A model generated the notes under the pieces. That model made no database searches and was not told the origin of the DNA. It saw only the letters and a list, made by a program, of their open reading frames with translations. Shown one piece after another: positions 25,964 through 29,945 of a stretch of 43,821 nt of DNA (within the stretch, counting starts at the first letter, position 1; every line of letters begins with the position of its first letter). The position numbers and the translations under genes were made by a program. The stretch is from Escherichia phage VerenaMeyer_Bas76, in the sequence record PQ850632.1; one strand, given 5' to 3'.

Positions 25964-26753
25964 TTACTGCCCCCATGAACGCCTTTATAAATTCAGCGGC
26001 TACTTGCGGGACGATGGCATTGCCATAACCGCGCAATCGTCCCACTCTTGCGGATACCCCATGAGTTGCCTCGCAAAATCCGCCTGGTATGACTCTAGTT
26101 TCCTTATCTGCTCCATGGTTGGGTTTCCATGAATCCCATAAACATGAAGCCACATCTGGCGATAAAGAGTATCGTTCCTGAATTTTCCGTCCTTTCTGTA
26201 AAATGTCTTGCTGAGATCCCCGTAATCCTTCCATCCTCGCGCCGTTGGTGTCGCCCATCCTCGCGCCAAAGATGATTCTTTTCCTTTCCTGTGGAGAGCC
26301 GACGCTGCAAGCTGGCAATACTGACGCCCCGCAGGCGTAGCCTTTGTCTTCCAGGTTAAGGAATACAAAATCGAGCCAGTGCTTCCCAATTGCTGCTGCA
26401 ACCTGCTCTCCAAACAGCAATTCAGGCTTGCACTCTCTGATGAGCCTGAGAAATGCTGGGGCAAGGTGTCGATCGTCGTCAAATCCGAGAGACTTACCGG
26501 CAACGCTAAACGGCTGGCAAGGTGGTGATCCTGTCCAGAGTCGAGTGCTTTCTGGTATTCCTGCCAGCTGGAGTGCAAGGGGCCACCCTCCGATTCCGGC
26601 AAAGAAGTGACACTGTGTAAATCCTTCCAGGTCTGAAGGGGTGACTTCGGTGATTGATCGTTCATCGACATATCCGTAAGGAATTAGTTTATTGTTAATT
26701 AATTCACGCAGCCACGCGGCTGCGCCTTTATCCCATTCGTTGTAATAGTTCAT
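25956..26753 (-). CDS. DNA (cytosine-5)-methyltransferase, compact form
   Basis: 265 aa. Motif I FFAGIGGW, motif IV GSPPCQPF, ENV-like FGEQV, motif VIII QERKR, motif X GNAIVP. The target-recognition region between VIII and IX is short. Confidence 0.75.
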   Translation of the reverse strand: MNYYNEWDKGAAAWLRELINNKLIPYGYVDERSITEVTPSDLEGFTQCHFFAGIGGWPLALQLAGIPESTRLWTGSPPCQPFSVAGKSLGFDDDRHLAPAFLRLIRECKPELLFGEQVAAAIGKHWLDFVFLNLEDKGYACGASVLPACSVGSPQERKRIIFGARMGDTNGARMEGLRGSQQDILQKGRKIQERYSLSPDVASCLWDSWKPNHGADKETRVIPGGFCEATHGVSARVGRLRGYGNAIVPQVAAEFIKAFMGAVNE

Positions 26754-26941
26754 TTCGCCACCAGAACTAACTCTTTACGCCCGAACGCCGTAACGTTACC
26801 GGTTACGTCTTCAATAACCAGTTTACCGTTCGACTCGACGAACACCGTGTCAACGGCAACAGGACGACGGGTCTTAACGTTGAAAATCATGTCGCCTGGT
26901 ACGATGTCACGTGCTGGTTTGCGGTCATATTCGTGTTTCAT
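26750..26941 (-). CDS. hypothetical protein (63 aa)
   Basis: ATGA-coupled to the methyltransferase gene. Start preceded by the promoter at 26975..27003 and AAGGAA. Confidence 0.45.
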   Translation of the reverse strand: MKHEYDRKPARDIVPGDMIFNVKTRRPVAVDTVFVESNGKLVIEDVTGNVTAFGRKELVLVAK

Positions 26942-27257
26942 TTCTAAATTCCTTATATTGTTGGGGTATGTGCTTACTATAATAGTCTGCTATTAGGGTG
27001 TCAATCTGTTTTATCGAACCAACGACAAAAACATTTGCGCCACGTTTACGTATACGCTCGTGTTCCCGTAGCTGGTGCGGGTCTGGCTTAGTGTTTTCGT
27101 CTTTCTTCACCTCGACGAACCAGACGATGCCGCCGGGTAGAATTGCCAGCAGGTCAGGAGCGCCTGAACGTCCTTCGTAGGAAAGTTTACGAACGAGGCC
27201 ACCAATGGCCTCGAATCGCTCTTTTGCGTATTTCTGGATGCGGCCCTCTTTAGTCAT
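26925..27257 (-). CDS. VRR-NUC domain nuclease
   Basis: 110 aa. PD-(D/E)XK-type motifs GAPDLLAI...VWFVEVKK...QLREHE, characteristic of VRR-NUC. Confidence 0.7.
   Translation of the reverse strand: MTKEGRIQKYAKERFEAIGGLVRKLSYEGRSGAPDLLAILPGGIVWFVEVKKDENTKPDPHQLREHERIRKRGANVFVVGSIKQIDTLIADYYSKHIPQQYKEFRNETRI
26975..27003 (-). promoter_or_regulatory. sigma70-type promoter TTGACA-N17-TATAGT (internal, inside the 3' end of the VRR-NUC gene)
   Basis: Minus-strand reading TTGACACCCTAATAGCAGACTATTATAGT. Same family as 30678 and 32978. Confidence 0.45.
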
Positions 27258-27406
27258 GACCGCAGCATCCAGGTAAGGAAAACCCAGCCTAGAATGGCAA
27301 CACCGGCAAACTGAAAGAACAGGCCGTAACAGAACATAGCAGCTATTCCCGCACCGAGTAACAGTGCGAGCATGGTTACTATGGTCCTAAATACAAACTT
27401 TGTCAT
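27254..27406 (-). CDS. small membrane protein (50 aa, two predicted TM segments; below cutoff)
   Basis: Manual translation MTKFVFRTIVTMLALLLGAGIAAMFCYGLFFQFAGVAILGWVFLTWMLRS. ATG preceded by GAGGGG; ATGA overlaps at both ends. Confidence 0.35.
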   Translation of the reverse strand: MTKFVFRTIVTMLALLLGAGIAAMFCYGLFFQFAGVAILGWVFLTWMLRS

Positions 27407-27492
27407 AATACACACCCCTCACGTTTCGTATGCTCAATCCCGCAGCGCGGACAGATTCGGCAGTCTTCTTCGTATAACCAGTAAATTTTCAT
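27403..27492 (-). CDS. zinc-ribbon-like micro-protein (29 aa; below cutoff)
   Basis: Manual translation MKIYWLYEEDCRICPRCGIEHTKREGCVL with CxxCxxC and a further Cys. ATGA overlaps with both neighbours. Confidence 0.25.
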   Translation of the reverse strand: MKIYWLYEEDCRICPRCGIEHTKREGCVL

Positions 27493-27620
27493 TCCAGCAC
27501 CCACAAATAAATTGCTACTAGCATACCCAATACGGCGACCATCATGCCGTATTGACCCTCGTGACAGTAGACACCAGCGGCGAATCCCGCCAGCACCGCG
27601 ATAATCAGTTTACTTAGCAT
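27489..27620 (-). CDS. small membrane peptide (43 aa; below cutoff)
   Basis: Manual translation MLSKLIIAVLAGFAAGVYCHEGQYGMMVAVLGMLVAIYLWVLE. Start overlaps the DNA polymerase 3' end; stop overlaps the next ATG. Confidence 0.3.
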   Translation of the reverse strand: MLSKLIIAVLAGFAAGVYCHEGQYGMMVAVLGMLVAIYLWVLE

Positions 27621-29781
27621 AGCGTTTTAACTCCTGACCTTCCGCTACAAGAGGGAACCCCTCCGCCCATTCTGGTAATTCGCACATCAATCGCTCAAGC
27701 TCTGCGACATTGTATTCCGGCGTATCTGGAGTTTCGCAGATAATCTCATCGTGGACATGAAGTACAATTGGATAACCGTTTGCTTCTACGTTCAGCAGCG
27801 CGTTGGCCAGCAAATCACGGCACAACGCCTGAGTGCAGTTTTCCACGAGTTTACCGGAATATGTGTACTGGAACCCCCACTGTCGGGTTAGCTGATTTTC
27901 GCCCTGGTACTTGATGCGCACGTTAGTAGACACCTTCCCGTCTTCGTCTGTCTCTTTTGATACGCTTAACCCGACGCCTGGATAAGACATAACACGACCC
28001 GACGGCAGCGTCATACGCAACCACCAACCAGCGACTTTGTTGCCGTTGTTGTCTGTTTCTACGTTACGCGAAAACTTAACCCCGCGCGGCCCTGCGGTGA
28101 ACTCTTTACCCGGATTGCGGATAGCCGCCATAGCTGCATCTTCAATATCGCGCCAGAATTGGACTATTGCTGGGTTAGCTTCCCGGTACATGCGCTTTAA
28201 AGCGTCACAGGTGCGCCAAACTTTCTTATCAAGAATATATGATGGTCGGTCATCTTTTTCACCAGGACGTGGCGGTCGCTTGGCTTCCTGAATACGCGCC
28301 CATTCATATCCTCGTGCGGTAGCGGCCCAGATATGGTCAGGGAAAGTCCCGTCTAAAGTACGGGCCATATCGTTCAAATCAAGCCCTAAGTTTTTAGCAA
28401 ACGTGACGAAAGCCCCTACACCCCCCGCGTAACCCAGTCCGAGAACCATTGCTTTGGCTATTTGTCTTTGGTCCTTTGTTACGTCGTCATAACTAACGTT
28501 GAACACGGTTGATGCGAGTTTCTTATACACATCAACCCCGTTTACAAATACTTCTATTAAATCGTCTTCGCCAGCCAGCCACGCCAAACCACGGCCTTCA
28601 ACGTTAGAGTAATCGGCTACGACAAACTTATGCCCTGCTTCCGGGATAATGCAGCTACGAACCGTCGACGCCGTTAGCTTGGCTACGTCGAAACGGCGAT
28701 GCGCACGACCCTTAAGTAGCGCTGAAATGCCCTTATCCAGTTCATCATCGTGATAGTACCCGCGCGCCAGGTTCTGTGGTTGGAAGCCTTTACCTGCGAA
28801 CCGTAACGTACGCTTGGCCCCACCGTACTGGATGCAACCACGGCGGCGGTCGTCCGACGAGCGACCCAACAGCAGCGGGTTATATTTCGTTGACGCAGTG
28901 GACGCGGCCCCGAGGCGCATTTCTATAATTGTGCGGGCGTCGTCGGGTAAATCCTCATCCACCAGCAGGTCGTTAAGCGTTGACTTCTGTGCATTGTGTA
29001 TGCGGTGCGCGGGCGCAAGTTCACGCAGAATCGGAAGGAAGTCTTTACCGGTAAGCGAGCCGCCGTATTTACGTTGAGCTTCTTCCTGTAACTGTGCCTT
29101 GTGCTTCTCTACGGCTTCAATCGCGGCTTCCGCCAGTGCGACGTCAACCTTAAATCCGCGGTCGTTGATTAACTGGTCAAGCTCCAGTACACGGTCTTCG
29201 AACTCGGAGTTACCCCAACGCGGCAGCTTATGGAAGACTTCACGCATCGCAGTGATGTCGCTCACGGCGTACCTGATGAACATCGCCCACTCGTCAGGGT
29301 GAGTTTCTGCGGTGTAGCGGCGGATTTTGTAGTTCTTCGGCGTCGGTTTAGAGAAACGCTTAATCAGAGCCTTGCCGCGTTTATCTTTCGCGTTGTCTGC
29401 AGACACGCCCAGCACTTCGCACAGCGCATCAAGAGAACCCGGCAGCGCGTGACGAAATGCCCAAATCATCGTATCAATGGTGTTGCTTACCGGAATATCA
29501 AAGCCCCAGCAGTGTTTCATGATGAGCCTGTCGAACATTGAGCCGTTGTGCCACACCATCTTGATGCGGCTGTTTGGCTTCACCAGGCGGCGTAATGCGC
29601 GATGCAAATCACCCGGCATGTCGCTGCCGTCTGTGCAATCCCATACCTGCACAGGCTGGTCGTCAAAAGCATATGTACAAATAAGCACTTCGGTGGTTGG
29701 ATGTTCGGCGTAAGCGTAGGAACCGACTTTCTTTAAATCGGCTTCGGAGAATGTTTCAAAGTCCAGGTATAAGTAGCTCAT
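27610..29781 (-). CDS. DNA polymerase I (family A) with 3'-5' exonuclease domain
   Basis: Exo I motif LDFETFS; polymerase motif A DYSNVEGR, motif B RQIAKAMVLGLGYAGG, motif C VLHVHDE. ATG at 29781 (preceded by AAGGAAA) preferred; the ORF track extends to a GTG at 29850. Confidence 0.9.
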   Translation of the reverse strand: MSYLYLDFETFSEADLKKVGSYAYAEHPTTEVLICTYAFDDQPVQVWDCTDGSDMPGDLHRALRRLVKPNSRIKMVWHNGSMFDRLIMKHCWGFDIPVSNTIDTMIWAFRHALPGSLDALCEVLGVSADNAKDKRGKALIKRFSKPTPKNYKIRRYTAETHPDEWAMFIRYAVSDITAMREVFHKLPRWGNSEFEDRVLELDQLINDRGFKVDVALAEAAIEAVEKHKAQLQEEAQRKYGGSLTGKDFLPILRELAPAHRIHNAQKSTLNDLLVDEDLPDDARTIIEMRLGAASTASTKYNPLLLGRSSDDRRRGCIQYGGAKRTLRFAGKGFQPQNLARGYYHDDELDKGISALLKGRAHRRFDVAKLTASTVRSCIIPEAGHKFVVADYSNVEGRGLAWLAGEDDLIEVFVNGVDVYKKLASTVFNVSYDDVTKDQRQIAKAMVLGLGYAGGVGAFVTFAKNLGLDLNDMARTLDGTFPDHIWAATARGYEWARIQEAKRPPRPGEKDDRPSYILDKKVWRTCDALKRMYREANPAIVQFWRDIEDAAMAAIRNPGKEFTAGPRGVKFSRNVETDNNGNKVAGWWLRMTLPSGRVMSYPGVGLSVSKETDEDGKVSTNVRIKYQGENQLTRQWGFQYTYSGKLVENCTQALCRDLLANALLNVEANGYPIVLHVHDEIICETPDTPEYNVAELERLMCELPEWAEGFPLVAEGQELKRYAK

Positions 29782-29945
29782 TTCTTTTTCCTTAAATCCA
29801 GTGCCTTCGTTTCGCTTAATCTTATTTTCATACAATTGCGGCAAATCCACACATGCCTGTACCCGGCCCGGTACTCATCCGCGTACCACGGAAGCGGTTT
29901 CATATAGCGGTAAACGTGCTTACAGAAAAACATTATTTTCGACCC

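Follow-up and report, generated by a model that had tools for sequence, protein, structure and literature searches.

The interval between the DNA polymerase gene and the VRR-NUC nuclease gene of Escherichia phage VerenaMeyer_Bas76 is filled by three small open reading frames (ORFs) on the minus strand, which are almost certainly real, selected genes with a core-plus-accessory layout. They were studied in sequence record PQ850632.1, a stretch of 43,821 nucleotides (nt) that is called the window here, and their products of 43, 29 and 50 amino acids (aa) are referred to as ORF1, ORF2 and ORF3. ORF2, a Cys/His peptide, forms a universal core that is flanked by two dispensable cassettes, the hydrophobic peptides ORF1 and ORF3, within an insertion hotspot. 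This layout was missed by an earlier note on the same DNA, which had described three consecutive minus-strand ORFs linked by ATGA overlaps. The chain itself was recovered exactly, in coordinates and in lengths, when it was re-derived from the minus-strand reading of positions 27000-27900 and the ORF listing (Table 1). Though real, the chain is an ordinary feature: its genes already have annotations in the nearest relatives, and their products are listed in PHROGs.

Coding conservation and probable coupling of the three genes

The coding potential of the frames was assessed in 55 oriented Guernseyvirinae loci, comprising the window, 4 GenBank records and 50 viral-contig loci found with the VRR-NUC protein as the query. 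Ratios of nonsynonymous to synonymous polymorphism (pN/pS) were obtained as pooled Nei-Gojobori estimates on unique sequences. In the proposed frames the ratio is 0.216 for ORF1, 0.069 for the ORF2 core and 0.226 for ORF3, and the neighbouring polymerase C-terminus and VRR-NUC gene give 0.176 and 0.174, respectively. The other two frames yield values of 0.84 to 3.7 and are all interrupted by stop codons, save one off-frame of the short ORF2 core. No internal stop occurs in the proposed frame in any sequence. Variable sites are enriched at third codon positions, with binomial P values of 0.013 for ORF1, 0.0009 for ORF2 and 0.006 for ORF3. In ORF2, 20 of the 22 core residues are nearly invariant while synonymous sites vary, and Gly13, Thr17 and Arg19 are each encoded by four synonymous codons with the residue fixed. 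The lengths of ORF1 and ORF3 are the same in nearly all database homologues. The earlier note had staked its proposal of genuine coupled coding genes on coding conservation in related genomes, and this is clearly present in the 55 loci.

Two codons of ORF2 behave differently from their neighbours. The third positions of GAG GGG, encoding the Glu-Gly of the sequence REGC, are invariant in 36-37 of 37 unique sequences, whereas neighbouring codons vary synonymously. This is consistent with a dual coding and ribosome-binding constraint, in which the hexamer would serve as the Shine-Dalgarno sequence of whichever gene follows.

ATGA stop/start overlaps are found at the ORF1/ORF2, ORF2/ORF3 and ORF3/VRR-NUC junctions, and the first of these reads ATGA or GTGA in all 46 unfused loci. 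At the upstream end, the Shine-Dalgarno sequence and start of ORF1 are located within the 3' end of the polymerase gene, the last 11 nt of which are overlapped by ORF1 from its ATG. A chain of at least three ATGA-linked ORFs of at least 20 codons arose by chance in 7 of 20,000 shuffles of the 461-nt stretch. However, because the window holds ten such chains, the arrangement is the genome's ordinary gene packing and not peculiar to this spot. One of the ten, at 26061-26340 on the plus strand, runs antisense to the methyltransferase gene and is probably spurious.

The assumption that every ORF carries a Shine-Dalgarno sequence was borne out for ORF1 and ORF3, whose sites pair well with the anti-Shine-Dalgarno sequence (AGGAG and GAGGGG, energies in Table 1), but not for ORF2, where pairing is weak (-3.7 kcal/mol). 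The VRR-NUC gene is also weak in this respect (-3.1 kcal/mol). As background, 6.3% of positions reach -6 kcal/mol or lower. Translation of ORF2 and VRR-NUC probably depends on termination-reinitiation coupling. On the coding strand of 27254-27620 neither a promoter-like site of at least 10/12 nor a terminator-like site was found, and the consensus promoter scan gave no plus-strand site in the region. The overlaps are kept across relatives with no promoter or terminator between the genes, which points to a translationally coupled operon.

A fusion of the polymerase or ORF1 with ORF2 by read-through or frameshifting was considered, the ORF2 frame being open across ORF1 in the window. It was rejected on a pN/pS of 2.3 in that segment, a stop in SETP3-type phages and the different frame used by the naturally fused form described below.

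A core peptide between exchangeable cassettes

The window belongs to a Kagunavirus-like phage of the subfamily Guernseyvirinae, and the region matches about 446 Guernseyvirinae GenBank records from the genera Kagunavirus and Jerseyvirus. It is 96-98% identical to Escherichia phage LotteLoewe_Bas71, in which exactly three hypothetical coding sequences are annotated here, Bas71_0041 (ORF1), Bas71_0040 (ORF2) and Bas71_0039 (ORF3). Over the chain itself the identity is 98%; gene order, lengths and overlaps are identical, with no structural difference between the two phages. Bas74 carries the same three annotations, as do most Kagunavirus records. All three peptides match existing PHROG families, each without functional annotation. 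ORF1 and ORF3 match phrog_10404 and phrog_14925 over their full lengths (E values of 2.5e-31 for residues 1-43 of 43 and 3.2e-27 for residues 1-50 of 50). Residues 1-28 of ORF2 match positions 5-32 of the 36 in phrog_38225 (E value of 2.7e-21), a model that represents a 36-aa fused form, whereas the window encodes a separate 29-aa form. In all 55 loci the families occupy the interval between polymerase and VRR-NUC. The expectation that such peptides are usually unannotated is thus contradicted for the clade in general. It holds only for ORF2, and there for many records of Jerseyvirus: of 40 evenly sampled matches, 16 have no feature beneath them.

Where ORF2 is annotated, its name can mislead. 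The homologue at 529-627 of locus L126 (phage JSSK01, JSSK01_47) is called '3-hydroxyanthranilate 3,4-dioxygenase' in GenBank, and that at 501-599 of locus L127 (phage S4lw, S4_00009) 'transposase'. Both names are spurious for a Cys peptide of 29-32 aa and look like propagated misannotations. The former probably stems from a chance-level CPxCG match to the rubredoxin-like site of the enzyme (Protein Data Bank (PDB), E value of about 1.2). An unusually large number of micro-genes encoding 30-45 aa are annotated across the Bas71 genome (for example Bas71_0007, 0016, 0024, 0049, 0051, 0054, 0061, 0073 and 0082), and the three ORFs belong to this genome-wide pattern.

The three genes differ in how regularly they occur. 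By tblastn against GenBank, ORF2 was found in 444 phage records, to be compared with the approximately 446 that contain the region, ORF1 in 223 and ORF3 in 120. Among the 55 loci, ORF2 is intact with its start codon in every one, ORF1 is present in 45 as judged by sequence pattern and ORF3 in 24. In one SETP3-type contig (L017) the ORF1 start is ACG instead of the ATG found in its near twin L026, which may reflect recent inactivation of an accessory peptide or a sequencing error.

All tblastn records for the three peptides are Guernseyvirinae. Database-wide searches with ORF1 and ORF3 recovered nothing but relatives from Guernseyvirinae, all at least 63% identical and located on contigs no longer than about 45 kilobases (kb). 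With a padded query, ORF2 was represented in a collection of 5.8 billion proteins only by the 36-aa form and a few frameshift fusions of 68-79 aa. These fusions (P0002-P0011, metagenome and assembly proteins with 1-3 members each) join ORF1 to ORF2 or ORF2 to ORF3 via single frameshifts and are probably assembly indels. A HMMER scan of 1.84 billion representative proteins gave 2 ORF2 matches, both from the same clade, and added only one 32-aa form. A degenerate DNA pattern recovered only three phage-derived fragments for ORF2 from 185,579 prokaryotic genomes, and in viral contigs its matches were mostly already in the 55-locus collection. No ORF2-like peptide is present in the interval of two more distant phages with the polymerase/VRR-NUC module (L055 and L061). 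All three peptides are lineage-restricted orphans.

The distance between polymerase and VRR-NUC takes many values in the 55 loci, from 89 to 1125 nt. The slot occupied by ORF3 in the window is elsewhere filled by unrelated hydrophobic peptides of 23-25 aa, a 64-aa protein (phrog_25645), an HNH endonuclease (phrog_99), a truncated HNH remnant (Jersey_40) or nothing. HNH-type genes also lie between polymerase and ORF1 in Bas74 and in the loci L023 and L048. The interval is a hotspot for cassettes and homing endonucleases. Free-standing HNH or 'endonuclease VII' genes were seen in L003 (1498-2004), L002 (1882-2004), L124 (1011-1706), L023, L048, L017 and L026, either directly after the Cys peptide or between polymerase and ORF1, and the overlapping start/stop junctions are kept around them. 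Inteins occur inside both the helicase and the DNA polymerase genes of related Jerseyviruses, as seen in Salmonella phage Ent3 (L004, 346-1389 and 2943-3839). The polymerase ORF of the window (723-746 aa) is close to the 726-aa annotated polymerase of Bas71, which leaves no room for an intein.

A fused form of ORF2 was found in 9 of the 55 loci, in Jerseyvirus lineages without ORF1. Here the first seven codons of ORF1 run into ORF2 to give MLSKLIIYYF[RH]EEDCRICPRCGIEHTKREGC..., a peptide of 33-36 aa that reads MLSKLIIYYF[RH]EEDCRICPRCG... at its start. In SETP3/SETP7-type phages the sequence TGATTAT is present both at ORF1 codons 5-7 and at the ORF2 start, and the fused phages lack exactly the 116 nt between the copies of this direct repeat. 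The deletion moves ORF2 into the ORF1 frame, behind the ATG and Shine-Dalgarno sequence of ORF1, so that the AGGAG site serves the Cys peptide in these phages. ORF1 is found in both genera, and the simplest account is therefore that a sub-lineage of Jerseyvirus lost it through a deletion. Where the layout is minimal in Jerseyvirus, ORF2 overlaps both the polymerase stop and the VRR-NUC start.

Predicted properties and possible roles of the peptides

The description of two hydrophobic peptides and one Cys-rich peptide in the earlier note agrees with our results. ORF2 is hydrophilic and contains four cysteines and one histidine, arranged as C-x2-C-P-x-C-G-x2-H-x5-C, a richer pattern than the CxxC...C that had been reported. 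The candidate metal ligands are kept in 55 (C14), 54 (C17), 53 (H21), 55 (C27) and 49 (C11) of the 55 loci. The C-terminal tail varies with the downstream neighbour, being CVL, CIL or C[IV]DEYA, and the total length in the subfamily ranges from 29 to 36 aa.

The label 'zinc-ribbon' fits this peptide only in part. A single knuckle, C11-x2-C14-P-x-C17-G, is followed by H21 and C27, but there is no second CxxC pair as in a zinc ribbon or rubredoxin. The best Pfam and PDB sequence matches have E values of 0.21 and 0.65, no NCBIfam match was obtained for the 29-aa form, and the 36-aa fused form from relatives reached an NCBIfam E value of 0.023, with 15 bits against a curated cutoff of 115. The C-x2-C-P-x-C-G signature is shared with rubredoxin-type knuckles and zinc ribbons such as those of Nop10 and ribosomal S27ae, where the best PDB sequence matches lie. 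However, all of these have E values of at least 0.65, and ORF2 has half the size of a minimal zinc ribbon. A likeness in the knuckle also exists to the C-terminal rubredoxin-like site of 3-hydroxyanthranilate 3,4-dioxygenase, at the chance level given above. The CCHC zinc knuckle of retroviral nucleocapsids has the form C-x2-C-x4-H-x4-C. ORF2 may be likened to it in its Cys-Cys-His-Cys order, the 14-residue span from C14 to C27 and a basic composition that would favour nucleic acids. Its spacing of C-x2-C-x3-H-x5-C is different, and no zf-CCHC match (PF00098) appeared in Pfam at an E value of 1 or lower.

ORF1 and ORF3 are strongly hydrophobic, with grand averages of hydropathy of 1.48 and 1.52. 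ORF1 has two hydrophobic stretches flanking an invariant H-E-x-Q-Y loop. An AlphaFold2 model of ORF3 built with 21 homologues is a single helix over residues 2-49, with a predicted local distance difference test (pLDDT) score of 88.6. Paralogy of the two peptides was rejected on an hhalign probability of 0.4%. No homology to the superinfection-exclusion proteins T4 Imm and Sp, P22 SieA or HK97 gp15 was detected with PHROG, Pfam or two database-wide protein searches. As small, hydrophobic, helical products of patchily distributed accessory genes, ORF1 and ORF3 may nevertheless be compared to the inner-membrane peptides AcrZ, MgrB and SgrT and to T4 Imm and HK97 gp15, with which they share no sequence similarity.

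Based on these properties, ORF2 would fold around a metal ion, most likely zinc, and could be a small accessory factor or adaptor for the proteins of replication and recombination with which it is co-translated, the polymerase and/or the VRR-NUC resolvase. The 3' codons of ORF2 would also provide the next gene, whichever it is, with a ribosome-binding site. ORF1 and ORF3 would insert into the host inner membrane and could, as optional fitness genes, modulate host membrane function or exclude superinfecting phages. Such optional host-interaction roles are proposed because of the patchy presence of the two peptides and their exchange for other small hydrophobic peptides. The suggestion in the earlier note that the micro-proteins could be membrane-targeted effectors or regulators is plausible for ORF1 and ORF3. 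The composite explanation, three genuine coupled small genes of a replication operon together with these roles, is in our estimate slightly better than an even proposition. Each functional assignment taken singly, ORF2 as a metal-binding helper or ORF1 and ORF3 as membrane modulators, is tentative and less likely than not. In a more specific version, which is unlikely, ORF2 would serve the replication-recombination machinery of Guernseyvirinae as a dedicated micro-subunit that binds metal and attaches to the family-A polymerase or the stand-alone VRR-NUC resolvase. The membrane peptides on either side would then be exchangeable cassettes for interaction with the host, such as exclusion or anti-defence factors.

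Several points weigh against the composite explanation. Literature searches yielded no functional, ribosome-profiling or proteomic data on these genes. One Kagunavirus RNA sequencing paper models only 57 genes in total, and these are not among them (PMC12645636). Metal binding by ORF2 is a prediction from its residue pattern, 6 loci have Arg or Phe in place of the first cysteine (C11), and AlphaFold2, run on the single sequence of the 33-aa GTG-extended window form, gave an uninformative model (pLDDT of 60). For all three peptides, searches of Pfam, NCBIfam, PADLOC and PDB sequences gave sub-threshold matches only. No relative was found outside Guernseyvirinae among the 1.84 billion representatives and the 185,579 prokaryotic genomes, and no informative gene fusion was found. 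Since genes in this genome usually overlap, the adjacency and coupling to polymerase and nuclease are weak evidence of a physical partnership. Finally, ORF3 is modelled as one long helix and not as a hairpin, and in the membrane it may form either a hairpin or a single span.

Other explanations fare worse. ORF2 could be a translational relay only, which passes ribosomes from polymerase to VRR-NUC and displays a Shine-Dalgarno sequence while the peptide itself is functionless. Such a relay would account for the overlaps on both sides of ORF2, the weak Shine-Dalgarno sequences of ORF2 and VRR-NUC, the use of GAGGGG by the next gene and the change of the C-terminal tail with the downstream neighbour. 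It is improbable, since the very strong amino-acid conservation argues against a pure relay: the core is nearly invariant, its pN/pS of 0.069 marks the strongest purifying selection in the neighbourhood, and the Cys/His positions are conserved in 49-55 of the 55 loci.

A similarly low probability is assigned to ORF1 and ORF3 being host-killing or lysis-timing membrane peptides, either holin/antiholin-like or depolarisers of the type I toxin kind. In size, extreme hydrophobicity and helicity they may resemble small holins and the Hok, TisB and Ldr toxins. However, the lysis genes of Bas71 lie elsewhere (holins and endolysin at 39.6-40.7 kb, spanins at 5.5-6.0 kb), which argues against a holin role. 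ORF1 and ORF3 are situated in the replication operon and outside the lysis cassette, and between half and three quarters of relatives lack them. In PHROGs, Pfam and NCBIfam they matched neither a holin nor a toxin family, and the consensus scan revealed no strong antisense promoter.

Still less probable is a replisome membrane anchor, with ORF1 and ORF3 in the membrane and the Cys peptide bridging to the polymerase or DNA. The position in a replication operon and the co-translation would suit such an anchor, the Cys peptide acquires a hydrophobic N-terminus (MLSKLIIYYF) in the fused form, and an analogy to phi29 p1 and p16.7 might be drawn. Yet ORF1 and ORF3 are dispensable in many normally replicating relatives, unrelated genes (HNH endonucleases or the 64-aa protein) hold the ORF3 position in others, and no homology to phi29 proteins was seen in PHROG or Pfam.

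Very improbable, and already strongly disfavoured, are chance open frames in a non-coding spacer whose DNA would be kept for a regulatory role, for an RNA structure or as the target of a homing endonuclease. In favour of this reading, all three ORFs are very short, several relatives have HNH endonuclease genes directly beside ORF2, the 59-nt ORF2 core is the only part of the interval that aligns at the DNA level across Jerseyvirus records, and the invariant GAG GGG third positions fit a nucleotide-level (Shine-Dalgarno) constraint. This constraint, however, covers only about 6 nt, no Rfam family matches over the whole window, third codon positions are enriched in variable sites, residues are fixed where their four-fold degenerate sites change freely, pN/pS is 0.07-0.23 in the proposed frames as opposed to at least 0.84 in the others, and frame and start codon are kept in 55 of 55 loci despite the 116-nt deletion.

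Operon context and significance

The three genes are part of an operon with the order gp2.5-like single-stranded DNA-binding protein, 51-aa ORF, DNA polymerase, ORF1, ORF2, ORF3, VRR-NUC, 63-aa ORF, C5 methyltransferase and SNF2-type helicase. The features in and around the interval are collected in Table 1.

Table 1. Features of the polymerase to VRR-NUC interval in the window
Feature	Position	Strand	Description
DNA polymerase A gene, longest ORF	27610..29850	-	upstream neighbour; equivalent of Bas71_0042 'DNA polymerase'
AGGAG, ORF1 Shine-Dalgarno	27631..27635	-	within polymerase coding sequence; duplex -6.9 kcal/mol
ORF1, 43 aa, MLSKLIIAVLAGFAAGVYCHEGQYGMMVAVLGMLVAIYLWVLE	27489..27620	-	phrog_10404; hydrophobic, accessory
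ORF2, 29 aa, MKIYWLYEEDCRICPRCGIEHTKREGCVL	27403..27492	-	phrog_38225; core Cys/His knuckle peptide of Guernseyvirinae
GAGGGG, ORF2 Glu-Gly codons and candidate Shine-Dalgarno of the next gene (here ORF3)	27415..27420	-	-8.8 kcal/mol
ORF3, 50 aa, MTKFVFRTIVTMLALLLGAGIAAMFCYGLFFQFAGVAILGWVFLTWMLRS	27254..27406	-	phrog_14925; hydrophobic accessory peptide, predicted all-helical; variable slot
VRR-NUC / Holliday-junction-resolvase-like nuclease gene	26925..27257	-	phrog_93, phrog_5702; downstream neighbour, ATGA-coupled to ORF3

Upstream of the polymerase, the 51-aa ORF at 29778-29933 on the minus strand, whose annotated equivalent is Bas71_0043, is ATGA-coupled to an internal ATG (29781) of the longest polymerase ORF. 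Because of this coupling, the polymerase probably starts at the ATG at 29781 and not at the GTG at 29850. Downstream, a sigma-70-like promoter match is located inside the VRR-NUC gene at 26976-27004 on the minus strand (TTGACA, a 17-nt spacer and TATAGT, 11/12), and phage Jersey has an annotated promoter at the same place. The predicted promoter in the window could drive the 63-aa, methyltransferase and helicase genes independently of the micro-ORF chain.

The practical value of these results is modest and no long-standing question is opened by them. Synthetic and therapeutic projects use Kagunaviruses as chassis (BASEL collection, PMC11990801). For phage engineering, ORF2 is probably needed, whereas the ORF1/ORF3 slot is naturally variable and tolerant of insertions. 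The present analysis makes three small additions. ORF2 is universal in Guernseyvirinae yet frequently left without annotation or given a wrong name, and it is nearly absent from metagenomic protein catalogues because it is only 29-36 aa long. A defined deletion of 116 nt links its fused and separate forms, and the polymerase-VRR-NUC interval is recognised as a hotspot of cassettes and homing endonucleases. Should ORF2 indeed be a micro-subunit of the replication-recombination machinery, few known accessory proteins of a replisome or resolvase would be as small, and many Jerseyvirus genomes would lack an annotation for it. The natural deletion that re-fuses ORF2 to the ORF1 start illustrates neatly how selection maintains the translation of a micro-gene.

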